A stretch of DNA of 64,000 nucleotides, taken from the NCBI GenBank assembly GCA_964016885.1, contig OZ024740.1:113088001-113152000 (forward strand), written 5' to 3'. Positions 5,845-61,197 of this stretch are shown here, piece by piece; the stretch's first letter is position 1, and every line of letters starts with the position of its first letter. This stretch comes from Eledone cirrhosa (taxonomy: Eukaryota). Made by a program: the position numbers and the translations under genes. The notes below the pieces were generated by a model. The model did no database searches and had not been told where the DNA came from. It worked only from the letters and a program-made list of their open reading frames with translations.

Positions 5845-7210
5845 TCGTTAGAACGGTGTATAGAATGGTCGTTAGGACGGTGTATAGAATGGTCGTTAGG
5901 ACGGTGTATAGAATGGTCGATAGAACGGTGTATAGAATGGTCGTTAGAACGGTGTATAGAATGGTCGTTAGAACGGTGTATAGAATGGTCGTTAGGACGG
6001 TGTATAGAATGGTCGTTAGGACGGTGTATAGAATGGTCGTTAGAACGGTGTATAGAATGGTCGTTAGAACGGTGTATAGAATGGTCGTTAAAACGGTGTA
6101 TAGAATGGTCGTTAGAACGGTATATAGAATGGTCGTTAGAACGGTGTATAGAATGGTCGTTAGAACGGTGTATAGAATGGTCGTTAGAACGGTGTATAGA
6201 ATGGTCGTTAGGACGGTGTATAGAATGGTCGTTAGGACGGTGTATAGAATGGTCGTTAGGACGGTGTATAGAATGGTCGTTAGGACGGTGTATAGAATGG
6301 TCGATAGAACGGTGTATAGAATGGTCGTTAGAACGGTGTATAGAATGGTTGTTAGGACGGTGTATAGAATGGTCGTTAGAACGGTATATAGAATGGTCGT
6401 TAGAACGGTGTATAGAATGGTCGTTAGAACGGTGTATAGAATGGTCGTTAGAACGGTGTATAGAATGGTCGTTAGGACGGTGTATAGAATGGTCGTTAGA
6501 ACGGTGTATAGAATGGTCGTTAGGACGGTGTATAGAATGGTCGTTAGAACGGTGTATAGAATGGTCGTTAGAACGGTGTATAGAATGGTCGTTAGGGCGG
6601 TGTATAGAATGGTCGTTAGAACGGTGTATAGAATGGTCGTTAAAACGGTGTATAGAATGGTCGTTAGGACGGTGTATAGAATGGTCGTTAGAACGGTGTA
6701 TAGAATGGTCGTTAGGACGGTGTATAGAATGGTCGTTAGAACGGTGTATAGAATGGTGTGTTAGAACGGTGTATAGAATGGTCGTTAGGACGGTGTATAG
6801 AATGGTCGTTAGGACGGTGTATAGAATGGTCGTTAGAACGGTGTATAGAATGGTCGTTAAAACGGTGTATAGAATGGTCGTTAGGACGGTGTATAGAATG
6901 GTCGTTAGAAAGGTGTATAGAATGGTCGTTAGAACGGTGTATAGAATGGTCGTTAAAACGGTGTATAGAATGGTCGTTAGGACGGTGTATAGAATGGTCG
7001 TTAGGACGGTGTATAGAATGGTCGTTAGGACGGTTTATAGAATGGTCGTTAAAACGGTGTATAGAATGTTTGTTAGGACGGTGTATAGAATGGTCGTTAG
7101 AACGGTATATAGAATGGTCGTTAGAACGGTATATAGAATGGTCGTTAGGACGGTGTATAGAATGGTCGTTAGGACGGTGTATAGAATGGTCGTTAAAACG
7201 GTGTATAGAA
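5845..7210 (+). repeat. 24-bp minisatellite, ~57 copies of TCGTTAGRACGGTGTATAGAATGG
   Basis: Directly visible tandem array; explains the SLERCIEW and VVRTVYRM pseudo-ORFs. One 1-bp slip near 6758. Confidence 0.97.
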
Positions 7211-12562: not shown

Positions 12563-13869
12563 ATGGCTGAGCCACGCCCCCCAGCGATATGTCTGCTGTC
12601 GTGCGACAACGACGTAGAAGTTGAGAGGAGCGCTGCAGCGAAATTAACACAAATTGATAACACAAACACCACCAAAAACAATGTAAACAAAGACACCAAT
12701 GATACCAAGGAGAACTCTAATTTTGAAAAAAATGACAGTAACAGCGACAACGAAAATACAGATAACAAAAAAAAATGACAACTGCAACAACAATATCAAC
12801 ACCACTAACATGAAAACAAATAGCGACAACACCAACAGCAACAATACCAACTGCACCGAGAACAACGGTGGCAACAAAGACAAATATGATAACAGCGACA
12901 GTGATGACAACAACAACAACAACAACGACAACGACAACAACACCCCCAACGAAAACAAGAAGAACACTTTCGCTGCGGCAGCAGCAAACAAGAGGCCATG
13001 CTTCAACATGGACCTCTCAAACAAAGATGAAAACTTGGTCCAGGCATGGAAGCTCATCAAGCAAGAGCAAACCTGGGCCAACTTAACTGTCCCGGTAGAA
13101 GCTATTGAGGCAGTGGTGTGCAGAACGGTGCATTATAGATGCATCTCAGCATAAACCAAAAGGGCAGCTTTAATCTCACAAGCAGATGTCGAAGTCGCGC
13201 TGAGGTGCATCAGAGAAGACACCCAGTACATAGAGAGGGGCAGACAGTACGGCACCATTTCGGTATTGTTCAAGTCAGAAGCCCTCGCTATGAAACACGC
13301 TATGACTCCTTGCAAAACCAGCAAGATCATAATATACCCCTCCCACATGGGAAAAAGAACGGCCCGTCTCCGCATTCCCAGAATCCCACCAGGACTTGAC
13401 ATGTGGTGGCTTCTGGGATGTGTGATTGTGGAGGGGACGGATACCGTCCCTATAGAAGTGACCAGAACGGCCAGAGAGTACTGGGCCGGGGTTGACCTGT
13501 AGATCCTTCTCCAGATCAGGCCCGAGAATGTGAAGACAATCCCGGACCACATCCGCCTTCAGAATGGGACGGTCATCCACATTATGATCGAAGGTGAAAG
13601 GCCGCATTGTTTTGTTTGTGGCACGAAGTGAAGATATACAAAAAGAGGGGGAAATTTTTAAATCGAGCACATTTCGCGTGCCGGAAGATTTGTTTCTGGT
13701 GCGAATGTCGCTCGATTTATACAACAAAATACGAGACAGCTTTCCTCGGGACGTGGGAACCTCGAACGTAAAACCCACTTCAAGACTTTTAAAGGGGTTC
13801 CCAAAAGAAACCCCACCAACTATGAAGGTCGAACAACCCGACCTTCACAAGAGCCCGGAAGGTAAGTAA
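12563..13869 (+). pseudogene. LINE ORF1 (gag-like), disrupted
   Basis: MAEPRPP start, Asn/Asp-rich N-terminus, then ARLRIPRIPP...IPDHIRLQNGTVIHIMIEGERPHCFVCGTK* (start of a CCHC knuckle). Frameshift at the A-run ~12770 and stops. Confidence 0.65.
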
Positions 13870-13901
13870 ACCTTTCCTCTCTCTATTTTTAACTTGCCAA
13901 C

Positions 13902-16900
13902 ATGGCCGTATTAAGAGTAGGATGTTTAAATGTTCGAGGCCTGGGATCGTCCTGGAAGCAGGGTCACCTGCTCAACGACCTCAGGTCTCTAGAAATGGAT
14001 GTAATTGCCGTCAGTGAGACCAGGATTTCCGACACGCGTGCACCAGCCCCCATTTTCGACGACTATCAGATCTTTGCATCTGTTAGCCGGCCGGGAATGG
14101 GAGGAAGGCTGGCAGTGCTGTTTAGGAAAGGCCTGGATCTCGAGGAAAGGTCGATCTTCCGGGACCCCGACGGGAAGTTGGTGGTCTTGGACGTGAACCA
14201 TAACGAAGGTGGTGTCTTTAGACTGGTGGCCATCTATGCTCCAACTGGGGCAGGACGACCGGACTTCTTTAGACGCCTGGAAGCCTTTCTGGGTACGTCT
14301 CGCCCTTTACTGTTAGCGGGGGACTGGAACGGCATCATAGACGCGCGCTGGGACTGTGTGGGAGTATCCGATAGGAGCGGAGGCTGCACAAGCCTCAAGA
14401 ACCTGATCAGCCAGTTCCAACTGTCTGACAGGTACCGACTAGATTTCCCTAACGCGCCAGTGTGGACCTGGACTAACCGCATAGGGTCATCTAGATCGTA
14501 TATAGACAGGATATTCATTAGGAAAATAGACAGAAATAGTGTAAGCTGTCCACGTTTTGAAACGGTCGCCTATTCAGATCACAAGTTTAGGACTGTATGG
14601 GCGACCTAGATAAGACGCGTAGGTTAGGACCTGGTTACTGGAAGCTAAACATGTCATTTCCGGCACGTAAGGCTTACAGGGACCAGGTCAACAATTTAGT
14701 TAAGAAAAAGTTGACAGGGGGAGTCGTCAACAATAGATGGTGGGGGGCTCTCAAAAGAGAGATTAGAGTAATATGGATAGAGTTTAGCAAAGAAGTAGCG
14801 TTAGAGAAAAATAGAAAGGAGGGGGAGTTGTTAGATAAGTTAGACGAGGCTATTGGTAGTGGCATTGCAACTGACCTGCTAGCGGCGAGAATGGCATTAG
14901 ACCATTTCTTCAATGCGAAACACGAAGGTTGCATTGTCAGAGCTAAGGCGCGTGCTCTGAGAAACGAGGGAACCAAAGCTGTTCGATGGGCCCGCATGGC
15001 GGAGGCGCAAGTCACCCGGTTTGGATGGTCTGCCCTACGAGCTTTACGTAAATATGCCAGACTTGTTCTCCAATCTCCTCGAAGCCCTCTACTGCAACTG
15101 GCAGCAAAACCGGAGTATTCCCAGTTCTGTGAGGCGGGCGTAGTGACGCTGATAAGGAAAGACGAGAACAAGAGGGACACATTAGACAATTTTAGGCCCA
15201 TAACACAGAGTTTAAGATTTTGGCCAGGGTGTTAGCGAAGAGGTTGGCGCTTGTCGTCGGGGATTTGGTTGGGGAGGCGCAAACTTGTGCAATCCCAACC
15301 AGGTCCATACACGACAACCTCCACCTAATGCGATACATCATAGAGAGGGTAGTGTGTAAACCTGGCTTCGGTGGGGCTCTGATCAATTTAGATCAATCGA
15401 AAGCATTCGATAGCGTCGACCATCGGAACCTGGATGCTGTCCTCAAGGCGGCTTGCTTCGGCCCCGTCTTCAGAAGCTGGATCACTGAAATGCACAGCGG
15501 CACCTGCTCGATGGTCAAAATTAATGGCCACCTCTCGGAACCGTTTCAGGTCTCCCGATTGGTCCGTCAAGGGTGCCCTCTCTCCTCCATTCTGTACGTA
15601 TTGACTCTCGAGCCTTTACTGCGGAAGCTGGAGCTCTTGCAGGGCATCCCGCTCGAACCGGGGCGCGTAAAGGCTGTGTCGGCTTATGCGGACGACATCA
15701 CCGTGATGGTGTCGGACACCTCAGAAATAGAGGTGGTCGGCAACTTATTGGAGGAATATGAAAGGTTCACTGGAGCAAAATGTAACCCGGAAAAGTCGAT
15801 GGGCTTGCAACTAGGCACCTGGAGAAGCTAGTCCATGCCGTCCAACAGCGTCGTTAGGCGCTGGACGGACGGACCGGTAAAGTTTCTAGGGGTTTGGTTC
15901 GGGCCAGACCTCAAGGTGGATAAGAATTGGGACGAGGTGACGGGCAGAGTAGTCAGTCTCACCCAGAAATGGGCTGGGAGGAAGCTATCACTGAAAGGTC
16001 GGGCGGAGGTGGCGAACGCGTACATCGCGTCCGTCATCTACTACCGTCTGACTGTCGTCCCTTGCCACCGTTCGCGCCTCGCCATCTTGGAGCGGCTCCT
16101 CTTCAAATTCTTGTGGAGGGGTCAGGTTCCGCTGGTGAGGCGGTCCATCTGCTGCCAGCACCCTCTACGTGGAGGGCTGGGCATGCCGTGGCTAATGATG
16201 CGTAGTCACGCGCTGAGGCTGCAGCATCTCCAGATATTCTGCCTAAACGGTGAACAGATGTGGTCGCCGTTTGTCAGACGGGCCTTTCCGCAGCTGGTTT
16301 CTTTGACTTAGCTGCAGTCCTGAGTCAAGAAGAGACCGAGACTGGGTGACTGGCATCTGGAATGTTGCCATGCACTCACTTCCCTCTACCAGGCGGGCAA
16401 TGCGGTCTGTGGAACTTCAACTCTCGAGTTCTATAGAGGATTAGTGGTGGGGTAGTGCGACGACGCACTCGGGGAGGCTCTGGGAGTCAACGAAGTCGAA
16501 CTAACTAGTCTGTACTGGAGGACTTTCGAGCCGGACGATGGATAATTTCCAAAAATCCCTCGCGTGGCAGTGCTACCGGGGGGCACTGCCGGTTCGAGAT
16601 AAACTCTACAGGCACGGAAGTGCTGTCAGACGGACCTGCCCGAGATGCGCGCAGAGCGACGAAACCGTTCTGCACGCACTCGTCCAGTGTCCGTGCATTA
16701 CTGACTTGTGGAGCTATGTTGAACAGCTGTTGTCGCGTGTAGAACGGATCCGGCTATCGGCCGAGTCCATATTGAAGATCGACCTGCCGCCTTCTTTTGG
16801 CCAGGAAGGGCAGGCAATTTTCCTCTGTCTGGTGGCAGTAGCGAAAGAGGTTGTATGGTGGACGAGGTTGAAAGGACTGAAGACAGACACTTTTCTCTTC

Positions 16901-17053
16901 GGCCAATCCCTCATTAACTTTTTCAAGTTTCACTTGGAAAAGAAGGTGGGGGTGGAGAGAGAAGTGTTGCCCTCCAGTACATTTGCTGAAAGGTGCGTGA
17001 ATGTGGGGAGAATGGCCTGTGTGAGTGGGCCTACTCTGGTCATGCGGCTGTAG
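13902..17053 (+). pseudogene. LINE ORF2: APE endonuclease + reverse transcriptase + C-terminal Cys/His motif (Tx1/L1 type), disrupted
   Basis: LNVRGL, VSETR, IYAP, AGDWN, SYIDR, SDH, GYWKLN, LDQSKAFD, VRQGCPLS, AYADD, FLGV, GGLG, CPRC..ETVLHALVQC; frameshifts, stops and an internal deletion near 15010. Confidence 0.92.
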
Positions 17054-27167: not shown

Positions 27168-27409
27168 ATATATATATACGAAATAAGACAGTTATGTCTA
27201 TATGATAGTATTTATTACATTATACACATTTCAATGACATAGTGGGTAATTATTATATAACGGTTAAGTCAGTAACTGGCACCTGTGTGATATCATCAGA
27301 TTATAACAAAATTGTGTGAAGTGGTCATTGTCAACCGCTTTGGCTTGAACCCGTTTATCCTCGTGACCACGGAACGCAACTTTCACAGAAATACCATATT
27401 AATTAGCAA

Positions 27410-28626
27410 TTGTCCCCGTCAATACCTCACCAAGATGGAACACATGCTCTTCCAGTTCCTTTGGAAGGAGCTGGCTCCACTGGTTAGGAGATCTGTCTGC
27501 TGTCAGCACCCTTCCAACAGAGGGCTGGGATTGCCGTGGCTGATGATGCGCGAACACGCACTGAGGCTACGGCATCTCCAGGTATTCCGCAGCAAACAAC
27601 TGGTGTGGGCCCGGTTTGTGAGACAGTCCTTCCGCAACTTCTCTCGCTGACGGATCTGCAGTCCTGGTCAAGCGGAGACCGAAGAAAATGGGCGCCTGGC
27701 ACATTGAATGCGCTCAGGCGTTCACAGTCCTCTTTCAGACGGGCACAGCAATCAGTGGAGACTCCACTTCGACATTCTATAGAGGGTTAGTACGTTACAA
27801 GTGCGGCGACGTGCTCAGGGAGACTCTAGGCGTCGAAGACGACGAGCTCACAAGTCTGTTCGGTAGGACTTTCCGCCCGGGACCCATGGATAACTTCCAG
27901 AGGTCCCTGGCAATGCTACCGAGGAGCTCTACCAGTTCGAGACAAGATCTACAGGTACAGACGCCCCGGCAGGGATCCTTCAAAGAGGACGTGTCCAAGA
28001 TGCGAGCAGGACATTAAAACCGTCTTGCACGCAATTGTACACTGCCCGGGCGTAACCGACCTGTGGAGCTACGCAGAACAACTGCTGTCACGTATGGGAC
28101 AAATCCAGTTGACTGCCGAGTCCATAGTAAGGATCAAACCGCCAACTTCTTTCAAAAACGAAAGAGAGGCGGTTTTCCTCTATATAGTGGTTATGGTAAA
28201 AGAGATTATATGGTGGACGAGATTGACAGGACTGAGGACAGATGCCTTTCTCTCCGGACAACAACTCATTCCCTTCTTTAGGTACCACTTTAGAAGGAGA
28301 ATCAGAGTGGAGAGAGAGGCACTGCACCCCAGTAAATTTACTGAAAGGTGGGTGAATGTAGCAAAAATGGCCCGAGTGATTGGGCCTTCTCTGTATATAA
28401 ACCTGTAGGTTGAAGATGAGAGTAAAAGGAAGAAAGGAGCACTTGCACAACACGCTCCTGGAGTTGAGGGATGTTCTATCTACGGGGTATTAAACAACCC
28501 ATTTGTAACGCCTCGATTGTTGAATTTGTTTGTTTAAACATTTTTTTTACACGATTCCATGTAAAATCCCGGCATATGTCCTTGTATTGTCCCCATTTCT
28601 TGTGCGCCCTTGTGGCAGATAAAGAA

Positions 28627-35689: not shown

Positions 35690-35905
<216 letters not shown>

Positions 35906-35970: not shown

Positions 35971-35978
<8 letters not shown>

Positions 35979-37037
35979 CGTAAGATAAGAAAATTATAAA
36001 ATTATAAAAAAATTATAAAATTGACTTACTTACTAAAATATCACTTCTAACTAATTAGTTTCTGGAATGGAGTAAATATATTTTCCGAAGAACATATTGA
36101 AAAGCATTCCGTCGTCAGGAAAGTCTATTTTCGTGTAAGTTACCAGGCATAGCGAGGACTCTGGAAACTTATTAATAAGTTTCCAGAGTCCTCGCTATGC
36201 CTGGTAACTTACACGAAAATAGACTTTCCCGACGACGGAATGCTTTTCAATATGTTCTTCGGAAAATATATTTACTCCATTCCAGAAACTAATTAGTTGG
36301 AAGTGATATTTTAGTAAGTAAGTCAATTTTATAATTTTTTTATAATTTTATAATTTTCTTAGCTTACGTCTCTCATATTATTGTTCTGCAACCCCATGCA
36401 TTGAACCACAATGTTACTAAGACAAAACCTATATATTTGCTAGCATTGATATGCATCTGTATGTATATAAATGTTACTAGATATAAATTCTTTATAATTA
36501 TCTCCAATTCATTTGTCGAGCAATATTGGCCATGACTGCTGCTATAGTAGTGGGCAGGCCACTGTCTTATTAACAACACGCTTTCCACTGATTGACCTCG
36601 ATGTCACGTGATTGATTCTTTTTGAATTTGCCACAGACGTAGAGGCAGTGATTTTCTCAATGGCTATGATTTCAGTCCACGCTTCGCTATTTCCTTTCCA
36701 CTGAATTATTTTTTTTAATAAGTTTCAAGAGTCCTCGCTATGCCTGGTAACTTACACGAAAATAGACTTTCCTGACGACGGAATGCTTTTCAATATGTTC
36801 TTCGGAAAATATATTTACTCCATTCCAGAAACTAATTAGTTGGAAGTGATATTTTAGTAAGTAAGTCAATTTTATAATTTTTTTATAATTTTATAATTTT
36901 CTTATCTTACGTCTCTCATATTATTGTTCTGCAACCCCATGCATTGAACCACAATGTTACTAAGACAAAACCTATATATTTGCTAGCAATGATATGCATC
37001 TGTATGTATATAAATGTTACTAGATATAAATTCTTTA
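35971..37037 (+). mobile_element. Non-autonomous Penelope-type/retrozyme-like element A: inverted pLTR + two direct pLTRs
   Basis: ~200-bp-arm palindrome centred at 36173/36174; 36174-36494 is repeated at ~36716-37037; three hammerhead copies; (TA)n flanks. Confidence 0.8.
36766..36847 (+). ncRNA. Type I minimal hammerhead ribozyme (element A, intact copy)
   Basis: Stem I ACTTTC/GGAAGT; CTGACGA 36772-36778; stem II GGAATG/CATTCC; GAAA 36828-36831; perfect palindrome ACTAATTAGT as stem III; GUU site after 36841. Confidence 0.75.
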
Positions 37038-37055
37038 TATATATATATATATATA

Positions 37056-37347
37056 TGTATTGAAATTTCCGTTGAAAACAGAAAAGGTCATAGAAGTGAA
37101 GAGTGCTCTATGTAAGTATCAGAGCAAAATTTAATGTATAAAAATCAATACAATATAATTACCTCATTACCAGAGGTTTCCCGAATGAGGCGAATTTTTT
37201 TTTTTTTTTTTTTGATGAGACTTTCCAAGTATTTACCCATGTTTTATATTGCCTCGTCTGACGAACGAATGAAGACGTTTCTTTCGTATTCGCCTCATTC
37301 GGGAAACCTCTGGTAATGAGGTAATTATATTGTATTGATTTTTATAC

Positions 37348-37352
<5 letters not shown>
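37056..37352. mobile_element. Fold-back element C (Penelope pLTR-derived)
   Basis: Inverted arms ~37132-37197 / 37288-37352, unpaired tail on the left, (TA)n flanks. Confidence 0.75.
37248..37325 (+). ncRNA. Type I hammerhead ribozyme (element C)
   Basis: 10-bp stem I ATTGCCTCGT/ATGAGGTAAT; CTGACGA 37258-37264; stem II CGAATGA/TCATTCG; GAAA 37303-37306; stem III ACC-TCT-GGT; GUA site after 37315. Confidence 0.8.
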
Positions 37353-37415
<63 letters not shown>

Positions 37416-37418
<3 letters not shown>

Positions 37419-37910
37419 GATATTAATAAATGGAAACTATATTTATAAAACCATATTTATTTCATTATACATATTTCAGGGATACCACATTAAATTATGG
37501 TATGCCTTCATCAGACAAAATACAATATATAACAGTTTTACAAATAGGTTTGACGTACCCTTTAAAATACAGCCAATATTTTTGGAGGCTGTCTGGATAG
37601 TGATTTGTTCATATAATCATTATATGAACAAATCACTATCCAGACAGTCTCCAAAAATAATGGCTGTATTTTAAAGGGTACGTCAAACCTATTTGTAAAA
37701 CTGTTATATATTGTATTTTGTCTGATGAAGGCATACCATAATTTAATGTGGTATCCCTGAAATATGTATAATGAAATAAATATGGTTTTATAAATATAGT
37801 TTCCATTTATTAATATCGTATATCTACTCCAAAAATTTGTCGAGTGCTTTATATCAGTTATAAAAATATTTACTTGTTGTATCCCAACAATTTTAAATAG
37901 AACTTTTGCA
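37416..37910 (+). mobile_element. Fold-back element B (200-bp arms, 1-nt loop) plus 3' tail
   Basis: Palindrome centred at 37618 (37418 pairs with 37818); unpaired tail 37824-37910; (TA)n flanks. Confidence 0.85.
37714..37778 (+). ncRNA. Type I minimal hammerhead ribozyme (element B; mirror copy on minus strand at 37458-37522)
   Basis: Stem I TATTTTGT/ATGAAATA; CTGATGA 37722-37728; stem II AGG-C-ATACCATA/TGTGGTAT-C-CCT; GAAA 37759-37762; self-complementary ATATGTAT; AUA site after 37770. Confidence 0.75.
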
Positions 37911-37921
37911 TATATATATAT

Positions 37922-38080
37922 ATAAACTTTAATATAGAAATGGCTTCTACATGATTTCTTTTGAATGAAACAATTCTCATCCTGTAGAAGCCATTTCTAT
38001 ATTAAACTTTATGTTTACACTCTACTAATGTATTGAGTACCTTACTAACTATGGTTATTCCCGATTAAACTTCTGACTCA
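37922..38080 (+). mobile_element. Short fold-back element with tail
   Basis: 30-bp arms 37922-37951 / 37983-38012, then a tail with an ACTC..GAGTAC stem. Confidence 0.65.
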
Positions 38081-38107
38081 CACAAACACACACACATATA
38101 TATATAT

Positions 38108-38317
38108 ATCCCTCTGTGGTTGAAGGTTGAGATGAAAGAGTACACAACACGAAGCAGAGTTTTAATATTCATGTTATTAAGGTTAAATAATGAGTCTTGT
38201 TTTTCTGGTGTTTCGAATGTTTATGACAGAGTCAGCACATAATCTGATGACCCTGTAATAAACAGGCGAAACGCCAGAGTAACAAGACCCACTATTTAGC
38301 CTTAATAAAATGAATAC
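38108..38317. mobile_element. Fold-back element D with hammerhead core lacking the 5' strand of stem I
   Basis: Diverged inverted arms ~38165-38234 / 38248-38316; CTGATGA 38244-38250, stem II CCTGT/ACAGG, GAAA 38268-38271. Confidence 0.65.
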
Positions 38318-38361
38318 ACACACACACACAGACACTTATATGTATAAATGTATGTATGTAC

Positions 38362-39301
38362 TAAAATATATATATATATATAGTTTTGCGAGGTTTTTTA
38401 ATATGAAATCGTGTGTCGAAACAAATATTGTTATACTTGTGTTGGGTCATATTTGTGTAATAATATTGCCAGAATTAATAACAGAATATACTCACTGTTT
38501 GATTGGTTTTCGCTTCTGTGTCGGTTAATTTAATTTATTCGGTCCTCAATGTTACCATTGACTGACCAACGGTCAAAAATACAGATACAATATATAGTCT
38601 AACAAAGTTCTTTCGTTGCACATCTGCAACATCGTCAGTGGTGCTATTATGTTTCCTCCCGTTGCATTGTATGCATACGACATCTTTATTTAGTCTGTTT
38701 ATTTATAGGCAAATCAGAGAGGCCAGCGAAATAGAACTTAGAAGGCCAAGGCGAAACAGAAAAAATGAATGGAATAACAACACCCAAACAAACAACACTG
38801 ACCTAAGAGAAGTATAAATAAATAAATAAATAAATACATACACAAGCACAATAACAACAAACACATATAAACACACACTAGTAAACTAAGATAGAATACA
38901 ATAACCAATACACAGTCACCCAAACACGAACACACATCAAACAAAACACTATACACACACGCAAACGCATGCGCAGAGAAGACACAAAAATAAACAAAAT
39001 AAATAAATAAACAGACTAAATAAAGATGGCGTACGCATACAATGCAACGGGAGGAAACATAATAGCACCACTGACGATGTTGCAGATGTGCAATGAAAGA
39101 ACTTTGTTAGACTATATATATATGTGTTTGTGTCTATATTGTATCTGTATTTTTGACCGGTGGTCAGTCAATGGTAACATTGAGGACCGAATAAATTAAA
39201 TTAACCGATATAAAGGACACAGAAGCGAAAACCAACCAAACAGTGAGTGTGTTCTGTTATTCTGGCAATATTATTACACAAATATGACCCTCCCCAAGTA
39301 T

Positions 39302-39310
<9 letters not shown>
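38362..39310. mobile_element. Fold-back element E (~290-bp arms around a ~290-bp spacer) with hammerhead-like cores
   Basis: Arms ~38424-38706 / 38998-39310; CTGACGA 39071-39077, stem II GTTGCA/TGCAAY, GAAA 39095-39098; stem I imperfect. Confidence 0.75.
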
Positions 39311-39344
<34 letters not shown>

Positions 39345-39595
39345 AGTACAGAATAAGCAAAACTATGTTCAAAACATTTTATTGCTGACAATCGTTTCTT
39401 CCAAACTTTCGGCTGATATAATCGGAGCACTAGCAAAGTTTAGACATATAATTAACCTTCTATTCCACAGAACAATCGTATAAATACATAGATGTTAGTG
39501 TTGTCATTAACAGTGTCATATTTAAAGTATAAATTATATTATTATTGTTATTAACTGCTCCATACTGTTGAGCTAACATACATAACATTACCAGT

Positions 39596-42150
39596 ATGCT
39601 GATCAAAGATTATCTTCCTATGTCTACTAAGAACATCCCAATACCATCTAGGGATACGTACGAAAAATTATTGATTATTAGTGTCAACTCATTTATCAAT
39701 AGAGTGAGATGGAGGACATTCCATTACGATAGAAACCGAACAGACAAAACAGGGATGGAATCAATTTCGACTCATACGGGGTTAAAACTTTTAAAACCCC
39801 ACTTTATTAAACTCTTTCGAAAATGATTTAATAAAACTAGTTAAGAACATAAGGTACAGAAAACATCCTAATAGAAATAACACCTTCTTAAACAACCTTA
39901 ACTCCACTATTAAAAGATTTAATAAAAATAAGAAAATTCTAATACATGCTGATAAAACTAATAATATATATATAGCCTAGATTACGAAACATCTAGAAAA
40001 TTTATATATAAAGAACTGCATAGGAGCTATAAGAAAACCACTATTAGAAACCTATAAGATATAAATATAGAAGGCCATAGTATAGTATGTAAATTAGAAC
40101 TTCAGAGATATACACAGCGATGCACCCCTAACCCCCCAAGATTCTCTCTGAAAGACCATAATGAAGACTTTAATAGTAACCCATTTATAAAACTAATTTG
40201 CCCTTCCAAATCTGACATTGGAATTATCAGCAAAAAATATTAGACAGAATCGTCTCCCAATTTAAGCATAAAATATATCCTAACCTGTGGGGAAATACTG
40301 GTGAAGTTATTGAATGGTTCAATGATATTAATGAGAATAAAAATAAAAAAATTATATAATTTGATATTAATTCGTACTACACCTCTATTTCTCCTATCCT
40401 ATTAAACAAGGCATTAATTATGGCTATGAACAATAGTCACCTTACTAGATCCCAAATTGATGTCATCCTTGCGACCCGTAAAACCATAATTGTATTTGAA
40501 GATCAATTATGGACCCGCAAAGATACACCTAACAACTTTGACATAACTATGGGATCTAGTGACACGGCGCAAGTCACTGATTTGTTGGTTCTATATCTCT
40601 TAAATGAAATTTATAAGAATCTGCCCTATCTCAATGGTGGTTTATACCGCGATGATGCACTACTACTTATTGACTATAAAAAATAATATAGAAAGAACTA
40701 GGAAACAATTGCATAACATATTTAAAAACTTCAACTTAAGTATTACCTTAGATAAAAACACTAAAAACGTTAACTTCCTTGGTGCTACCCTTTGCGTGGA
40801 CTCTAAAATATATACACCTTTTCATAAACCAAACGAAAAACTACTTTATGTAGATACCAAATCTACCCCCCCCCCCCTAAATCTATATTAAACTCAATTA
40901 CTAAAGGAATATCAAATGGAATTTCTACTCTATCATATAATTGTTTCTACTTTTGACACAAAGCCAGTACATTACTCGTACTTTATTTTATCGACCCCGT
41001 GAGGATGAAAGGCAAATTTAACTTCGGCGGGATGACACTATATTTAAAAGTAAATCCCAATACTATAATGAGTCCTTAGCTCGATCAAGCCATAAAAATA
41101 AAATTAGATTTTTACCTATAATATTCACTTAGTTACAACATTATTTCTCACAATATGGACCTGAATAAAAGTAATAAAAGTACTAGCCACTCTAACTCTA
41201 GTACGAAGGGTAATATCAAACTTAACTCGCACCAAAATAAACACTCCAATAATAATATAAACAGCAATATAAACAATACCTCAAATAACATTACAAAAAA
41301 CAAAAATAGAAGAACTAATACATTTTTCAATCCGCCTTTTAATCTAAACGTCTCTACCAACTTGCCTAAGGCTTTCTTCTCAATCTTAGAAAAACACTTC
41401 TCAGTCGGCCACAAATACCATAATCTTATCAATAAAAATACCATTAAAATCTCTTACTCTATCACACCTAACATCGCGTACCATATAGCTATTAATAATA
41501 AAAGGAAGATTAATAATTATTTCCAACTAATTAAATCGCAACAGAGGGTGAACTTACATAACAACATAGTACCAGAGAATTCTAGTAGCAATAATAATAA
41601 TAGTAATAGCACTAATCAAATTAATAACAATGGGAATGGTAATCATCATTACCCTAATGCTATCCCTAACAACCATGCATCTACACACCCTACTAACCAG
41701 CAAATAAACAACCAAAATAACTGTAACTGTAGAACAAATAGAACTTTCCCCTTAGGACAAAATTGCGTAATCAAAGACATTATTTACTCATGCACATTCA
41801 ATACAAACAACAGTTCAAAAACATATATCGGTTCAACTACGAACTGCTTCAAGACCAGATATAACTCGCATCTCCAAACTTTCAAAAATCGCAATCTAGT
41901 CAACTCCACTTCTTTATCTAACTACATACACTCTCTGAAAACTAAGAATAGACCATATACACTTCAATGGGAAGTAATACAAAGGGCCGCATCGTATAAA
42001 CCACCGAATAAATTATGTAACCTCTGTCTTGTAGAGACTCGCACTATAATCTATTCTAAGCTAAACCTTTTAAATAGAAAATCAGAAATGTTTTCCATGT
42101 TCCAACACTATCACCGACACTCTTTCCACAACTTCAAACCTAGCTGTTAG
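39596..42150 (+). pseudogene. Penelope-like reverse transcriptase + GIY-YIG endonuclease, disrupted
   Basis: STKNIPIP, RVRWR, HADKTNN, FDINSYY, ITMGS, GGLYRDD, VNFLG, FFNPPF, CNCR..PL..NC linker, IIYSC..TYIGST..FKTRYNSH, CNLCLVE..LLNRKSE. The CxC linker and C-terminal CxxC resemble Hydra-type PLEs (tentative). Frameshifts and a SINE insertion. Confidence 0.88.
40937..41032 (-). mobile_element. SINE fragment nested in the Penelope ORF
   Basis: ATAATTGTTTCTACTTTTG...TCGACCCCGTGAGGATGAAAGGCAAATTTAACTTCGGCGGGAT. Confidence 0.85.
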
Positions 42151-43222
42151 TATATAATATTGTCAGATCTGGATTCATCACCACCATTAACACTTTACCT
42201 CTGGGTTTTATCAGCATATAATTACCCCCACAGCATCACATTCTATGATCAGCTCATTCCTCTACTTACCTCCTATTTATCTACAATAACTATTGGGAAT
42301 AAACATAAAGTTACCACCATTTAATATAACTACAATAACTTCCTTACTAATATTTTATTCATTTAATTAATATATGGGTAGGTAGTGATAAAATGAGACC
42401 TTTAAGATTGTATTTAAAATTAAATATATATATTTAAAAACAAATAGCATTATATAAAAGAATTCGTTATAACAATATATTGTATATTAAATAAAATTTA
42501 AATAATTGGAGTTGTAAACAACTATACATTTTGCTCTTATATACAAATTAATCGCCAATTACCTCCCCTTTCACATTAGCTTCCCTTAGTATAGATCTCT
42601 AATCACTTCCTGAAATTAAACCGTTAGACAGATCACTCCAGATCAACTTGAACCCTTGATAAGATTGTAATAGGACCACTATACAATCCATAGTTGTAGC
42701 AACTAATAAACATTTACTAAAATATAACCAATGTAATGGAAAGGAAAACCTTAATATTAATACTCACAACACATGCACATTTGAACATTACCGGAACAAT
42801 TATCACATTGCATCCACCATAAACTTCATAGAAACTGCTTTTCATACCCACGCACCTCTGTCTACTTAATATGCTTTTATACCTGCATTGTATTATGTGA
42901 TACATTTGCCATATTGTGATATATATGTTTAGTACCATTGCTTGTTTCTTACCTGGTTATTCTGTACATGCCTAATACCTCTGCACTCTTTCTATACGTT
43001 TGTATATGTACCGCTAATGTCCTCATTTTGCGAGTAACTTTCTTCTTTAATTCCTCTATAATTGTTGTATTATTCTTTTATAATCTTTGTCGCATCCACT
43101 GATACTGACCACATCATCTTCACTCTTTAAATATGACACTGTTAATGACAACACTAACATCTATGTATCTTTATGATTGTTCTGTGGAATAGGAGGTTAA
43201 TTATATGTCTAAACTTTGCTAG

Positions 43223-43269
43223 TGCTCCGATGGATCCAAACGAAAGCTTGGAAGAAACGATTGTCAGCA
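43223..43269 (+). ncRNA. Degenerate hammerhead ribozyme in the Penelope 3' pLTR
   Basis: TGCT/AGCA stem I, mutated core CCGATGG, stem II TCCAA/TTGGA, GAAA 43254-43257, ACGATTGT stem III, GUC site. Confidence 0.55.
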
Positions 43270-43496
43270 ATAACATGTTTTGAACATAGTTTTGATTATT
43301 CTGTAATTTATTTCCGGCTCTGTAAAACATCTGATGTATTTATATTGAGGTATTTTTCTTACTGGTAATAAGGTGGTAATGAATTACTGACCTTGCTTGT
43401 TTATAATTATATATAGTGTATATATAAGTATAAATAATATTATTATTATTATATATATATATATAGAAATGATAACACACACGAGAGAGAGAGAAA

Positions 43497-45360: not shown

Positions 45361-48300
45361 TTACAGTTTGTTCAAAAGAATGCTTTTGATGACAACATTC
45401 TTAGGTGACTGGGTATCCTTCAGAAACACTCTGACATTTTCTTTTCGTTTTCCGCAGCTAAGGGCTACATACAGTTGACCGTGTTGGAATACAGGTCGTT
45501 CCAGATAAACCAAGACGTTTTCCATAGTTTGTTCTTGTGCTTTATGAATAGTCATACGATTGAACTGGGAATTGGCTTCGCTGCAAAGGGATATCCCACC
45601 TTCGGATAGATTAATTCTTATTCTAGGTATCATAACGATCTCATTTCTGAAAGCAATAGTGTTGATTCTTGCTACTATGAGATTGTCGTGCAGTTCTTCC
45701 ACGATCACGCGCGTTCCATTACAGAGCCTTGGAGGATTCAAGTTTCTCATAAGAATTATTGGCGATCTTTTTTCAATTCCAGGTTATGTGGTGGAAGTCC
45801 TGATAGTTCAACCGAATCAAGGAATTCAGTCGGGAAATGAGTGGCATTGTCACCATCACTCACAGAATTATAGGATCGGTACTCTTTTATGGTTCCAGGG
45901 AAGCGTCTGATACAGGAGCAATTGATGCTTCTCATCATTTCATTGAGAGGTACTAAGATGCAATTGTTCGAAAACACTTCAGTTGGATTGTCGAATGAGG
46001 GGTAGATGAAATCAATACATTCTTCCATAGTTGTTGCTTGGAGAACGATTTATTTTTGCAAAATAATTTCCTCATTTTCAGTTTTTTTTATCTTATCTTC
46101 TCCAATATCCAATAGGAACTGTGCATAGTTTCCTGCTCCGCCACCCAATCGCATGTTTGTCTTCAATTGAAATCTTTTGAAGCTTCGCCATAAGTAGGAT
46201 TTTTTAATGCAGGCGTTTTCCACGTCCGCTTCATTTCCCCTTTTCATTAAGAAGCTGACGGAAATCGCCACAGCAAATTGTCAAAATTCCACCGAATCCC
46301 TCATTGGTGTCGCATATGTCATGCAGAGTGAGGTCAACAGCTTCGAAACTTTCCCTCCGAATCATAGGACACTCATCCCAAACAATCAGCCTTGTATGCT
46401 AGAAGAGGTTTGCCGTCGTTGAGTTTTTATCAATGTTGCACAGATCATTTTCTTTCACTACTATCGGTATTTTGAACGTAGAATGCGCTGTTCTTCCACC
46501 AGGCATCTGTGTTGTGGTAATGCCAGATGACGCAACAGCAATAGCCACGTCACCGTTTCCCCTGACTTTTGAAAGAATTAAGTTAATCAGGAATGTCTTT
46601 CCTGTTCCACCTGGAGCGTCAATGAAAATCAATGCAGATGTGTTCGTCTCTAAACTGTTACAAACGAAGTCGTACACGTGTTTTTGTTCACTATTCAATA
46701 GAGGTTCCGTCTCTTCTATAAATCGTCGCTGCTCTTCTCTGGTGTATTGCAATTATGCAATAACTCAAAATTGCCAATATCCTGATTAGTAACAATATTA
46801 TTTGGCCTTGGCAAGTTAAAGTCACTAAGACTTTTGCCCAGGTCGTTAAGTTTGTCTTCAAAATACAGAAGACATTGATCATAATGTCTCTCGTTAATCA
46901 AAAGTTTAGAGTTTCTGGTAGCCCTTTTTTCTATTTGAAGGTAATCCTCAGACAGCGAATGCTTAAATAGAGCCCATAAAGCACTGGAATTTTCAATTTC
47001 TGTATTTGTGAGGAGCACGATGAATAGGTCTCTCATGGCTTTGGGAAGCCTTGTTCGCTCAGCATCTTCCAGAGTCTGCTGCCAATGACCATCCGATTGA
47101 AGCAAACCTTTCTCTCTGCAGAGGTCTTTGAATAATTTCAGGAGTTCTCCATCACACATTTTCAAAGAGTTGAAGGATACTGGCCCTTTGAGGTGATGCA
47201 GAAGGAGTCTTAAATAACACAGGTCACCACTTCGTGGAGAAACAGTGTATACTCGTCCCAAAACGTTCGCCTCAAAAATCCCTGGATACTGCTCAACCTT
47301 TCTCCTTTCCCATCTCTTATTACTCCAAGTGTAAAACTTTGGGACATCGGCATAATACAATGTTTTTGCAAACGGATCGCGATCGCAAAGATCCATGAAC
47401 TCAGTCAGAGTCGTCTTAGCCATGTTATTGTTTACTTTAACAGCAGAATTGACCCGAAAGAAGATTTGATTTTCCTCAGGTAGATGAATTTGAAGGTGAC
47501 CTACGACCGGTTATCTCTCATGAATTGGAAATCCAAGTACCAAGGCAACAGCTTCTGAAGGACCGATATATCTTCCTGTTAAATACTGTATTATCTCATC
47601 TTCCCTGTTCACTCCAAACATTGCCTGATCACTGCCCTTCATGGTATATTTGATAACGTATTTGATCGATTTCACGGAAGAGCACATCTCTACGTTTAGG
47701 TGGCAGTTGAATAGTTTTAATAGTTTCATATTGTAGAGAACCACCCATTCCGAAGTTATATTTCGGCTTCCCCTTCCTTCTTGGTGACCCTCAAATCCTC
47801 CCATTCCTGGAGACCGTCTTCTGTACACAGGATAAGAGTCCTCTCCACACAATGTATATTCATTGAAAGGCTTAGGGTACCGCTTATTGCACATTCCATC
47901 TTTCCAACATGGCGAATTGTTAGAGCAATTCGGACCGTGAATCATGTGCTTCAGCACCAATTCATGACCCTCTGGATCTTTATTTGGATCTGGTATTTCG
48001 GCTTGAACAAATTTATCATATTCCTGCAGTCTGGGCTTGGAGGCTTCATTGAGCCATAGCAAACAGTGCACATGCGGAAGACCTCGCTTTTGATATTCGA
48101 CTGTCAGCACGTAAGCAATGCACTTGCCAAATAGGCCATCTACTCCAGTAAGATACTTTCTTAACAGTTTCCGCTTCAGGTCAAATACTCTGGCAATTAA
48201 ATCTAGCTTGTCATGTGGCTTCTGATTCAGGAATAGGTTTTGCCGGATTTCATTGTGATGAAGAACGAAGGATTGCCGTACTTCCGTATGTACATAATGG

Positions 48301-49820
48301 CATCCTGGCTTCGCTCCATCATATATCTCGGTCGACCGACAAATGTGGAAGAGAGTATGATTCGCCTGCCTATATTGCGATAATCGTCATCATCATTCAA
48401 TGCGTCAGTAAGGCCATTGTATGTTGTAGATCGCAATGATGTTTGATTCATTCGGATGTATTGCAGTCTATCTCCTTCAATCTTCGCATTCTCATGGTTC
48501 ATTATTCGATAGGATTAGTAGCGAATTGGCGTCAACTTCTTGTTGTTGCTCATTAACAGCTCATGATGCCATCCGTCATCGCCAAAAGGAAAACATAGAA
48601 CATACTGCAAACTGTCATAGGACCGATGGGACTCTGAGATTATTTGCAATTGTCCGCCTTTTTCTTTCAACACAATGTGCCGTGCTTTTGGTTGAAGTTC
48701 GGTGCTGTTTTGTATAATGACGGCAACTTCATTTGCAGTTTGTGCATTGAATCTTCTCTCATGTTCCTTTGCTGGTCTCCTACCAGGATCAATAATAGTC
48801 GAAACTTCGGGAATATTTTTAATTTGTTCTTTTGCCATTCGAAATGAAGCAACGTAAGGGTTATATTGTCTGAGTATTATTTCCAATAATTCAACTATGT
48901 CGCGCTGAATGCCATCGTTATGGAGTATCCTGATCCTCAAATCATCAGTATCCTGAGGATCCAAGAAGTAAATTTGAAGAAATGGGGGTTGTTCGTTGGG
49001 ATTAGGGTTTAAGGAACCGATGTAATGGTGAATTTGACATGAATAACGATAGAAGGATTCCATCCACTCATTGAGGACCGAACTTCTTCGGCACCAAAAG
49101 ATGCCATTTGGAACAGGCAGTTGTATTGTCTGAGGTTCTTTCTGAACTCGTTTGCCCTAGGTTGATCAGTACTAAATAAACTGTGAAGTTCCTGGGGGTA
49201 AAGGCTGCAGATTCCCCAACCTGACTTTTCCATTCATACAGCAAAAGTTAGCAGTTTCACCATGAATAAGCATTGCATGACAACAGACACATCTTATTCA
49301 TCTTTCCAACATCAGCAGAAAGGACACGTCGTTGAACTGTCCTTGCTCTATCCCTAATGGTTTGTTGGCAAAGACGTTCAGTTCTCCGAGCGTCCGATTC
49401 ATAATTTCTCCTGCTTCTGTCTCTTTCCCTCTGTTCCGCCAGACGCGCAGCTCTCCGACTATCCGATTCATGATCTCTCCTGCTTCTGTCTCTTTCCCTC
49501 TGTTCCGCCAGACGCTCAGCTCTCTGACCATCAGATTCATGATTTCTCCTTCTTCTGTCTCTTTCCCTCTGTTCCGCCAGACGCTCAGCTCTCCGACCAT
49601 CCGATTCATGATCTCTCCTGCTTCTGTCTCTTTCCCTCTGTTCCGCCAGACGCGCAGCCCTTGCTTTATCAGTCTCATCGATCCGTCTATTCGTATGCCT
49701 GTCCCGATCTTGTTGGCGTTGACCACTATCTTGCTCACTTTCTTCGGCTCTCCTTAGCCGTTCTTTCTATCCACTATCGATAGACCAACCAGATGTTTTC
49801 TTTCTTCCTCGTCGGGGCAT
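45361..49820 (-). pseudogene. Helitron RepHel: STPR-like repeats, Zn finger, HUH/Y2 Rep and Pif1-type helicase, frameshifted
   Basis: MPRRGRK start; GKMNKMCLCCHA..ETANFCCMNGKV; VEYQKRGLPHVH; KYVIKYTMKG; FIDAPGGTGKTF; GGRTAHSTFKIP; RNLNPPRLCNGTR; MTIHKAQ; HGQLYVALS. Confidence 0.93.
49372..49660 (-). repeat. 69-bp coding tandem repeat (~4 units; 23-aa STPR-like)
   Basis: Period 69 (49411 vs 49480); the frame continuous with the Zn finger reads ETDKARAARLAEQRERDRSRRDH / ESDGRRAERLAEQRERDR.. Confidence 0.8.
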
Positions 49821-52015: not shown

Positions 52016-52198
52016 AAAAAGTGTATACACCATTCTAATATATATATTGCCTGTACAGGTAATCAAAGTGTATATACATTTTTCGGGGAAACCATATATA
52101 TATATATATATACCTGGGTCCTGAAAAATGTATACACCATTCTAATATATATATTGCCTGTACAGGTGATCAAAGTGTGTATACATTTTTCCGGGACA

Positions 52199-52241
<43 letters not shown>

Positions 52242-52966
52242 GGTGTCCCTAAAACTGTATACACCATTCTAATATATATATTGCCTGTACAGGTAATCAA
52301 AGTGTGTATACATTTTATGGGGACACCATATATATATATATCTGGGTCCTGAAAAATGTATACGCCATTCTAATATATATATATTGGTTGTATAGGTAAT
52401 CAAAGTGTGTATACATTTTTCCGGGTCACCATATATATATAAATATATATATATACCGGTGTCCCTAAAACGGTATACACCATTCTAATATATATATTGC
52501 CTGTACAGGTAATCAAAGTGTGTATACATTTTTCGGGGACACCATATATATATATATACCGGTTTCCCTAAAATATATATACACCATTCTAATATATATA
52601 TTGCCCGTACAGGTAATCAAAGTGTGTATACATTTTTAGGGGACACCATATATATATATATATATATATATATATCGGGGTCCCTAAAAATGTATACACC
52701 ATTCTAATATATATATATTGCCTGTACAGGTAATCAAAGTGTGTATACATTTTTCGGGGAAACCATATATATATATACCTGGGTCCCTAAAAATGTATAC
52801 ACCATTCTAATATATATATTGCCTGTACAGGTAATCAAAGTGTGTATATGCTTTTCCGGGACACCAAATATATATATATACCGGTGTTCCTAAAAATGTA
52901 TACACCATTCTAATATATATATTGCTTGTACAGGTAATCAAAGTGTGCATACATTTTTCGGGGACA

Positions 52967-53041
<75 letters not shown>

Positions 53042-53125
53042 GGGGTCCCTAAATATGTATACACCATTCTAATATATATAGTGCCTGTACAGGTAATCAA
53101 AGTGTGTATACATTTTTCGGGGACA

Positions 53126-53174
<49 letters not shown>

Positions 53175-53778
53175 GGGGTCCCTAAAAGTGTATACAGCAT
53201 TTTAATATATATATTGTCTGTACAGGTAATCAAAGTGTGTATACATTTTTCGGGGACACCATATATTTATATATATATATACCGGGGTCCCTAAAAATGT
53301 ATACATCATTCTAATATATATATTGCCTGTACAGGTAATCAAAGTGTGTATACATTTTTCGGGGACACCATATATTTATATATATATACCGGGGTCCCTA
53401 AAAATGTATACATCATTCTAATATATATATTGCCTGTACAGGTAATCAAAGTGAGTATACATTTTTCGGAGAAACCATATATATATATACCGGGGTCCCT
53501 AAAAATGTATACACCATTCTAATATATATATTGCCTGTACAGGTAATCAAAGTGAGTATACATTTTTCGGAGAAACGATATATATATATACCTGGGTCCT
53601 GAAAAATGTATACACCATTCTAATATATATATTCGTTGTACAGGTAATCAGAGTGTGTATACATTTTTCCGGGACACCATATATATATATACCGGTGTCC
53701 CTAAAAATGTATACACCATTCTAATATATATATATGGCATGTACAGGTAATCAAATTGTGTATCATTTTTCGGGGAGA

Positions 53779-53821
<43 letters not shown>

Positions 53822-54748
53822 CAGGGTCCCTAAACATGTATACACCATTCTAATATATATATTGCCTGTACAGATAATCAAAGTGTGTATACATTTTTCG
53901 GGGACACCATATATATATATATATATACCGGGGTCCCTAAAAATGCATACACCATTCTAATATATATATTGCCTGTACAGGTAATCAAAGTGTGTATACG
54001 TTTTTCCGGGACACCATATATATATATATATACCGGTGTCCCTAAAAATGTATACACCACTCTAATATATATATTGCCTGTACAGTTAATCAAAGTGTGT
54101 ATACATTTTTCGGGGACACCATATATATATATATATACCGGGGTCCCTAAAAATGTATACACCATTTTAAGATATATATTGCCTGTACAGGTAATCAAAG
54201 TGTGTATACATTTTTCGGGGACACCATATATTTATATATATATACCGGGGTCCCTAAAAATGTATACATCATTCTAATATATATATTGCCTGTACAGGTA
54301 ATCAAAGTGTGTATACATTTTTCGGGGACACCATATATATATACCGGGGTCCCTAAAAATGTATACACCATTCTAATATATATAGTGCCTGTACAGGTAA
54401 TCAAAGTGTGTATACTTTTTTCGGGGAAACCATATATATATATATATATATATGGGTCCTGAAAAATGTATACGCCATTCTAATATATATATTGTCTGTA
54501 CAGGTAATCAAAGTGTGTATACATTTTTCGGGGACACCATATATTTATATATATATACCGGGGTCCCTAAAAATGTATACATCATTCTAATATATATATT
54601 GCCTGTACAAATAATCAAAGTGTGTATACATTTTTCGGGGACACCATATTTATATATATACCGGGGTCCTTAAAAATGTATACACCATTCTAATATATAT
54701 ATATTGTCTGTACAGGTAATCAAAGTGTGTATACATTTTTCGGGGACA

Positions 54749-54791
<43 letters not shown>

Positions 54792-55079
54792 GGGGTCCCT
54801 AAAAATGTATAGATCATTCTAATATATATATTGCCTGTACAGGTAATCAAAGTGTGTATACATTTTTCGGGGAAACCATATATATATATACCTGGGTCCT
54901 GATAAATGTATACACCATTCTAATATATATATTGCCTGTACAGGTAATCAAAGTGTGTATACGTTTTTCCGGGACACCATATATATATATATACCGGGGG
55001 TCCCTAAAATGTATACACCATTCTAATATATATATTGCCTGCACAGATAATCAAAGTGTGTATACATTTTTCGGGGACA

Positions 55080-55124
<45 letters not shown>

Positions 55125-55313
55125 GGGGTCCCTAAAAATGTATACACCATTCTAATATATATATTGCCTGTACAGGTAATCAAAGTGTGTATACGTTTCT
55201 CCGGGACACCATATATATATATATACCGGTGTCCCTAAAAATGTATACAGCATTCTAATATATATATTGCCTTTACAGGTAATCAAAGTGTGTATACATT
55301 TTTCGGGGACACC

Positions 55314-55344
<31 letters not shown>

Positions 55345-55655
55345 CCGGGGTCTCTAAAAATGTATACACCATTCTAATATATTTATTGCCTGTACATATA
55401 ATGAAAGTGTGTATACATTTTTCGGGGACAACATATATATATATATATATATACCGGGGTCCCTCAAAATGTATACACCATTCTAATATATATATTGCCT
55501 GTACAGGTAATCAAAGTGTGTATACATTTTTCCGGGACACCATATATATATATATATATACCGGGGTCCCTAAAAATGTATACACCATTTTAATATATAT
55601 ATTGCCTGTAGAGGTAATCAAAGTGTGTATACATTTTTGGGGAGACAACCTGTAT
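52016..55655. repeat. Tandem array of ~33 Tc1/mariner-type MITE units separated by variable (TA)n
   Basis: Unit ~88 bp: CCGGGGTCCCTAAAAATGTATACAC...GTGTATACATTTTTCGGGGACACCA, imperfect TIRs, TA-flanked. Confidence 0.88.
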
Positions 55656-55669
55656 ATACACAAATATGA

Positions 55670-61065: not shown

Positions 61066-61197
61066 AGATCAAAAGATGGTTAAAGGAGTTAACCATCTTT
61101 TGATCTTATATTATGCATACTCCAGTCCCACAAACTGTAGAGTGCTTCTTATCCGATATCTGCATTGCTTTATTGTACTACAATAAAACTCACCTCC

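Follow-up and report, generated by a model that had tools for sequence, protein, structure and literature searches.

At positions 35972-43405 of a 64,000-nt stretch of the Eledone cirrhosa genome (contig OZ024740.1, positions 113,088,001 to 113,152,000; referred to as the window), seven fold-back elements lie back to back in the order A, C, B, H, D, E and P. As an earlier note on this DNA had described, they are separated by microsatellite spacers of about 14-70 nt, which consist of pure or degenerate TA/AC repeats. All of them except E share a bulged hairpin. We consider it probable that seven high-copy families inserted successively in one (TA)n tract and that in the six Hydra-type families the hairpin sets the start of reverse transcription. 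Directly observed are the families with their open reading frames (ORFs), the anatomy of fold-backs and tails, and the hairpin with its covariation and its spacing from the (TA)n junctions; that the hairpin positions the initiation of reverse transcription is likely from comparison of these sequences. The hairpin shared by six families is the new element of the finding and is present, unremarked, in three published consensus sequences of Hydra-type Penelope-like elements (PLEs). The value of the cluster lies in exposing a candidate start signal that extends across the clade.

The hairpin and the ends of the elements

The hairpin has the form RYUC-Y...R-UN-GARY, usually followed by RC, and is located 3' of the hammerhead ribozyme in A, B, C, D, H and P. 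Each family possesses two preferred 3' ends that are joined to a microsatellite, and the stretch between them constitutes the tail, which comprises 55-120 nt or more (43 nt in E). In A, B, C, D and P the distance from the first end to the hairpin start is 2-6 nt, with a wider scatter in H; A, B, D and P have a further hairpin past the second end. The ends of A, at positions 205 and 323 of its repeat unit, each lead into microsatellite in 12 of 12 copies, and the hairpins begin at 210 and 328. The second end of B runs into microsatellite in 17/17 copies, with the hairpin 6 nt further on; for the two ends of C the numbers are 13/13 and 16/16.

Junction offsets were determined as the first departure from the element relative to the hairpin start, leaving out copies that run on into the hairpin as well as A hairpin 1 and C hairpin 2, whose anchors caught one copy each. 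The offset is -4 for A hairpin 2 (7/8), -2 for B hairpin 1 (10/14), -5 for B hairpin 2 (14/17), -6 for C hairpin 1 (8/11) and -4 for P hairpin 1 (5/8), and the junctions show 2-6 nt of TA microhomology. A second hairpin of D, predicted beforehand to lie past the tail end, was found at three loci (five pattern matches; none with a reversed-pattern control). The hairpin occurs in five further hammerhead families in flanking DNA and as a variant in a sixth; several other hammerhead families there are without it. The earlier note, which had overlooked the hairpin, called the elements unrelated and saw no evident primary sequence in common. BLAST indeed finds no similarity among the seven 3' units, but with a structural motif common to six of them the elements are not unrelated.

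The hairpin in metagenome and published Hydra-type elements

A sample of 78 metagenome loci that encode relatives of the C protein yielded 44 distinct hammerheads. In 28 of the 44 the hairpin follows 3' of the cut site, in 26 of these at a distance of 36-59 nt, whereas the controls gave 0/34 upstream, 0/44 on the reverse strand and 0.3% in shuffled sequences. The hairpin also precedes the ORF in 27 of the 51 loci with enough upstream DNA (65 were examined), versus 0/51 on the reverse strand, and a second hairpin occurs 55-74 nt further in 17/32. TAT is found 4-10 nt upstream of the hairpin in 26 of 32 elements, as opposed to 4-6 of 32 further upstream and a shuffle mean of 8.3, and in three metagenome contigs the 3' copy becomes (TA)n 2-5 nt before the hairpin. 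Covariation of the stem amounts to 0.46 versus 0.17 after shuffling, with six of eight pairs changing on both sides.

By eye, the exact motif was recognized in the consensus ends published for Hydra-1_Ajap, where it occurs twice, and for Hydra-2_Ajap and Hydra-2_Amil. In the available text of PMC8557442 the words 'hairpin' and 'stem-loop' do not occur in the main text, nor does 'hairpin' in the supplement. The motif was found neither in Rfam nor in the literature searched, which did not include subscription papers and Repbase notes, so that priority is not certain.

Coding and non-coding families

Copies of B, C, E and P share long upstream sequence that is truncated to varying lengths. Among 20 longer stretches, L167 (B) and L174 (C) display the order pseudo-long terminal repeat (pLTR), ORF, pLTR, and L177 carries the ORF of E. 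In L174 the pLTRs flanking the ORF are in tandem orientation; there are two 3' ends per family, and inverted arms are present. In L167, L174, L177 and the window copy of P, a single ORF contains reverse transcriptase (RT) and then a C-terminal GIY-YIG domain, as indicated by YRDD/YVDD and Y[IV]G motifs. Pfam and PDB scans gave no confident match for the window or long-copy proteins; a relative of the C protein, P0003, matches GIY-YIG PF01541.

The CxCx5C linker is exact in B and C, and its last cysteine is changed in the window copy of P. DKT is found in C and P, NKT at that place in the only B copy read, and the CCHH motif is absent from the endonucleases of all three. These motifs, together with (TA)n insertion and a hammerhead near the 3' end, place B, C and P among the Hydra-clade PLEs. 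The E protein lacks the Hydra-clade combination of CxCx5C, DKT and missing CCHH; its CX4CxxC linker, DKSG, YVDD, and the cysteines and histidines in its GIY-YIG domain place it with the Neptune/Nematis-type PLEs. To judge from their long copies, which carry RT/GIY-YIG frames, B, C and E derive from autonomous PLEs by loss of the 5' part, so that the idea of non-autonomous parasites in the earlier note applies at most to A, D and H, which alone look non-coding. P, described there as a full PLE, is full-length but decayed: it contains frameshifts and stops, and a 100-nt repeat has inserted at 40937-41033.

A is built of 543-nt units in head-to-tail order; it has inverted arms and lacks an ORF. 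Nineteen other matches show tandem or inverted units only, and 17 of the 20 top copies have the hammerhead core. The tandem joint and both TA junctions were recovered from public short-read assemblies, the head-to-tail joint in two runs. With ORF-less tandem units and a type I hammerhead, A appears retrozyme-like. D and H differ from non-LTR retrozymes: no tandem units and no common upstream sequence were found among 20 H loci, 25 D loci and 30 further D loci. The latter 30, collected with the forward arm only, were aligned; agreement per column is about 40% up to a point eight bases before the core and jumps there to 73-100%. No master copy of D was found; the sequence after its second hairpin is rare (two matches) and non-coding, and in L334 and L335 a CT-rich non-coding minisatellite common to both loci occupies this place from position 1500. 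At L012:700-1330 (-) and in L352, the endonuclease end and 3' untranslated region (UTR) of a different Hydra-type family directly adjoin an inverted piece of A, possibly through a template switch between families. The L012 joint was considered as a route to the parent of A and rejected, since its GIY-YIG end belongs to the 3' end of that other family.

Hammerheads

A CYGANGR core followed by a stem and GAAA had been noticed in six of the elements, and it is indeed present in A, C, B, D, E and P. A strict type I descriptor matches three times in the cluster, versus a mean of 0.04 (maximum 1) in 100 dinucleotide shuffles, and nowhere else in the window; the B hammerhead was recovered only with a shorter helix II setting. 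The complete type I motif (CUGANGA/GAAA/NUH with helices I-III) is formed in families A, B, C, D, H and P, the core of P being a U4C variant. The core is present in 25/25 top copies of B, 25/25 of C and 20/25 of P, and 19 of 30 copies of D have the complete motif. E has core and helix II in 23/25 copies and a helix I of just 2 bp. The window copy of H is interrupted inside the core. In the window, the hammerheads of A, B and C are predicted to be intact, those of D, H and P are damaged, and that of E is doubtful.

In four families, as in many published Hydra hammerheads, helix II has a 1x1 mismatch at its base; among the metagenome elements (L256-L333), 21 of 57 hammerhead matches have U-U at this position. 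Rfam reported no hammerhead among 41 matches nor among the 150 listed of 362, only microRNA look-alikes at hairpins and microsatellites. When eight hammerheads were folded by minimum energy, no z-score reached significance, which neither supports nor weakens the hammerhead reading. The sequence GCC-AA-GGC-GAAAC at about 38740 was rejected as a ribozyme half, as it is the end of the E ORF with one base changed. About 15 further type I hammerhead families were encountered in flanks and random stretches (L005, L014, L025, L026, L031, L040, L044, L073, L079, L082, L086, L117, L221, L242 and L254). Those without the Hydra-type hairpin may carry the tail signal of another clade.

Abundance and association with (TA)n

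In the 3.0-Gb genome assembly each of the seven families is dispersed; a first look gave 1,153-3,052 candidates per family, to be read as minimum values rather than as copy numbers. The view of the earlier note that these are distinct ribozyme-carrying PLE families which target (TA)n is supported, each of them having more than 1,000 such candidates. In forty evenly spaced 10-kb stretches the seven families were represented by 26 copies, which corresponds to one in about 15 kb and, by extrapolation, to roughly 2 x 10^5 copies in the genome. Eighteen of the 26 copies contact (TA)4, versus 11% of random intervals, and copy number tracks the density of TA runs (rho 0.55). A neighbour of another family within 200 nt was found 16 times in 159 loci (two represent the same place), where about 3.5 were expected.

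That the arms might be single-copy or assembly artefacts can be discarded: fold-backs occur at 5-17 of 20-25 loci per family, counts that include window copies and overlapping loci, and their recurrence at other loci shows that they did not arise by misassembly. According to a review (PMC6765202), PLEs tend to insert into, or adjoining, existing copies. The pile-up is real but is what (TA)n-targeting PLEs ordinarily produce where they are dense, and PLEs that target (TA)n and have hammerheads, tails and inverted 5' arms are already known from the literature. A special landing pad, as first imagined, is not what the data indicate; the pile-up is the extreme of a genome-wide tendency, and (TA)n targeting combined with hammerheads is a published signature of the Hydra clade.

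Proposed mechanism and alternatives

In the proposed course of events, the GIY-YIG domain would nick (TA)n, and a short UAU(A), located about 4-10 nt 5' of a hairpin that the RT protein holds, would base-pair with the freed (TA)n end. Copying would proceed 5'-ward through the hammerhead. With two hairpins there would be two start sites, which would delimit the tail, and a second priming on the opposite strand would create the inverted arm. The hairpin used for the start would not be copied, such that a solo copy would lose one hairpin in each round and tandem units alone would keep both; this would explain the one-sided tails and the dependence on tandem units. Since every insertion would leave (TA)n on both sides, later elements could land alongside. 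A, D and H would ride on Hydra-clade proteins. A would be mobilised in trans, because it has kept the hammerhead and both hairpins without an ORF; D and H start at helix I and would represent copies of short templates. E likely uses another signal. In vitro, the tail of a Poseidon PLE is bounded by two internal RT starts (PMC11167929).

On balance we favour the more general proposal that in Hydra-clade PLEs across animal phyla a duplicated bulged hairpin and the adjacent UAUA primer-alignment motif form the RT start signal. Such a signal would explain the one-sided tail, the (TA)n targeting, the need for tandem units, and the borrowing of the enzyme by ORF-less hammerhead RNAs, namely the 543-nt tandem unit and minimal elements of 80-140 nt.

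A number of observations speak against the proposed course of events. The start-signal function of the hairpin is deduced from sequence. Six of the eight pairs counted for covariation are required by the descriptor that selected them, which makes that result partly circular; the two free pairs are paired in 28/36 and 20/36 rows. The strict motif is absent in 16 of the 44 metagenome hammerheads (four end in TA first), and by eye the end of Hydra-1_Crog is a variant and that of Hydra-1_Obim gives no clear match. Offsets are scattered in old families: the D hairpin 1 offset is -4 in only 6/30 copies, and those of H hairpin 1 spread from -6 to -14, with 27/40 unclassified. The outer pair of A hairpin 2 is mismatched, the second hairpin of C closes only over a long insert, and no second hairpin was detected for H, where the pattern search gave three microsatellite matches only. 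E has no hairpin, yet it targets (TA)n and has a tail. Initiation in Poseidon was not homologous to the cut DNA (PMC11167929). As for successive insertion, a neighbour-chain estimate predicts only about 0.003 runs of seven per genome; local hot spots must therefore be added, and the run of seven in the window marks a true hot spot.

Starts might instead be set solely by microhomology of UAUA with the nicked (TA)n, the hairpin assisting protein loading or hammerhead folding and the constant distance being a by-product. The enrichment of TAT upstream of the hairpins and the TA microhomology at the junctions agree with this alternative, as does the requirement of protein for cleavage by the Poseidon hammerhead (PMC11167929). 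However, the AT-rich 3' ends contain many other TA motifs and the elements nevertheless end at two positions only, each beside a hairpin, and the distance between hammerhead and hairpin varies from 36 to 85 nt; we regard this explanation as improbable. We give still less credence to a motif that acts in DNA, as a site for recognition by the endonuclease or for resolution on the element's own end, with the tail arising by resolution of an intermediate. PMC8557442 ascribes the tail to endonuclease-mediated resolution, and Drosophila Penelope endonuclease needs the tail region to cut a plasmid, as cited in PMC11167929. Against an action in DNA, the upper stem changes on both sides yet stays paired and tolerates G-U, and in the sense strand the 2-nt bulge lies on the 3' side in every case, with no reverse-strand match in 44.

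The cluster could also have been moved or built as one unit, be it a composite element, a duplication or a mis-assembly. Its seven families in 7.4 kb exceed everything sampled, the maximum being three families in the 40 systematic stretches and four in six loci picked as crowded, and no read or contig spans it. But the best identity to other copies of the same family ranges from 82% (D) to 100% (C), which indicates insertions of different age and favours separate insertions; moreover, the neighbour run of the window recurs in 0/159 other loci, and each element has its own family-typical ends. An origin as one unit is therefore very unlikely, and we retain successive insertion.

Relation to known systems

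In the available text of Craig et al. (2021, PMC8557442; bioRxiv 10.1101/2021.04.23.441226), the Hydra clade is characterized by a C-terminal GIY-YIG domain, DKT, the CxCx5C linker, a hammerhead near the 3' end, (TA)n insertion, inverted 5' copies, and a one-sided tail, with members from octopus, coral and sea cucumber; that text reports no non-autonomous partner. B, C and P fit these traits, and their tails of 55-120 nt or more exceed the published 30-40. The Poseidon element PAc of Anolis (Frangieh et al. 2024, PMC11167929) belongs to another clade. It resembles the Hydra-type families in having two tail-bounding RT starts, an AT-rich target, and a stem-loop in the start region. Its initiation takes place inside an AC-rich stem-loop, whereas the starts proposed here lie just 5' of a sequence-conserved bulged hairpin, at TA microhomology. 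The text of its supplement, as far as available, mentions no stem, hairpin, tail or Hydra.

Non-LTR retrozymes, like A, lack ORFs and form tandem arrays in which every unit has a type I hammerhead; they are inferred to depend on PLEs (PMC7229834; bioRxiv 10.64898/2026.07.22.740005). A is set apart by its 543-nt unit, the PLE-type inverted arms and the two defined ends. PLE hammerheads, including opposite-strand pairs and solo copies, are described in PMC4209133. The cis signal that would allow A to borrow an RT would, in our proposal, be the hairpin. E resembles Neptune/Nematis PLEs not only in its protein but also in its 43-nt tail and (TA)n ends, and differs from them by the 2-bp helix I of its hammerhead.

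The reverse transcriptases of PLEs are the closest relatives of telomerase. Autonomous LINEs (long interspersed nuclear elements) and their short dependants, SINEs (short interspersed nuclear elements), have in common a conserved 3' stem-loop of the RNA beside a microsatellite-like priming site; this stem-loop, located 5' of the priming site, becomes part of the copy. The Hydra-type hairpin, by contrast, is situated 3' of the proposed priming site, is duplicated and would not be copied when used. As to how PLE RTs choose an internal start and why the insertions have a tail at one end, one element has so far been reconstituted in vitro, and no clade-wide RNA signal turned up in the literature searched. 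A 20-nt motif at a fixed distance from natural junctions lends itself to direct mutational tests. The hairpin also provides a tag by which hammerhead repeats without an ORF can be connected with their partner clade, and it could guide the design of RNA templates for (TA)n-targeted insertion.

Organization of the cluster and other features of the window

The arms of the seven fold-backs are 82-100% identical (A 199/202, C 62/62, B 205/208, H 26/27, D 61/74, E 264/274, P 174/186). The retrozyme-like element A (35972..37035, +) begins with the inverted arm 35972-36173, followed by 1.6 head-to-tail copies of its unit. The hammerhead of the second unit (36766..36847, +) has its core at 36772 and a predicted cut after 36841 (GUU); other cores are at 36229 (first unit, U4C) and 36118(-) (inverted copy). 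Hairpin 1 (36383..36406, +) is a GUUC/GAAC variant that recurs at 36926, and hairpin 2 (36501..36521, +) lies 5 nt past the second (TA)n-joined end of the family. C (37056..37349, +), a putative Hydra-clade 3' end, has its core at 37258 with a predicted cut after 37315; inverted arm and tail extend from 37133 to 37056 on the minus strand, hairpin 1 lying within the tail (37105..37125, -). B (37418..37909, +), likewise a putative Hydra-clade 3' end, is a perfect fold-back with a tail, cores at 37722(+) and 37514(-) with a palindromic minimal helix III, and hairpin 1 at 37826..37845 (+).

H (37924..38085, +), of a short, apparently non-coding family, is cut within the hammerhead core and has hairpin 1 at 38019-38038. 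D (38110..38315, +), from an old family of the same kind, has its core at 38244; the 5' strand of helix I was lost at the fold-back, and the tail, from 38166 to 38110 on the minus strand, contains a decayed hairpin at 38160. E (38382..39305, +), a Neptune/Nematis-type 3' end by its motifs, starts with the last codons of its ORF, has cores at 39071(+) and 38638(-), and bears its tail on the minus strand. The 4-kb element P (39341..43405, +), assigned to the Hydra clade, consists of the inverted arm 39341-39527, ORF remnants at about 39620-42150, the 3' UTR, and the tail. Its core at 43227 is mutated, the inverted-arm core at 39425(-) further still; a decayed hairpin 1 is at 43317, and hairpin 2 (39557..39573, +) is immediately upstream of the ORF.

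The repeat inserted in the P ORF on the minus strand is a dispersed one. It occurs at 35692-35803, at 40937-41033 and in at least nine other places in the window, often ends at (TA)n and is very common among the loci fetched. Outside the cluster, weak matches to the hairpin model lie at 61113-61148 (+) and 1774-1815 (+), with E-values of about 0.05. An array at 52017-55658 is made up of units of about 103 nt that have inverted ends and alternate with (TA)n runs of unequal length; we take it to be a tandemly amplified miniature inverted-repeat transposable element. Broken frames at 45361-49757 (-) presumably derive, from their motifs, from a Helitron Rep/helicase, and decayed frames at 12687-17053 (+), 27291-28408 (+) and 1129-2745 (+) presumably from the endonuclease/RT of non-LTR retrotransposons. 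A 24-nt minisatellite is present in 57 copies at 5844-7210 (+).

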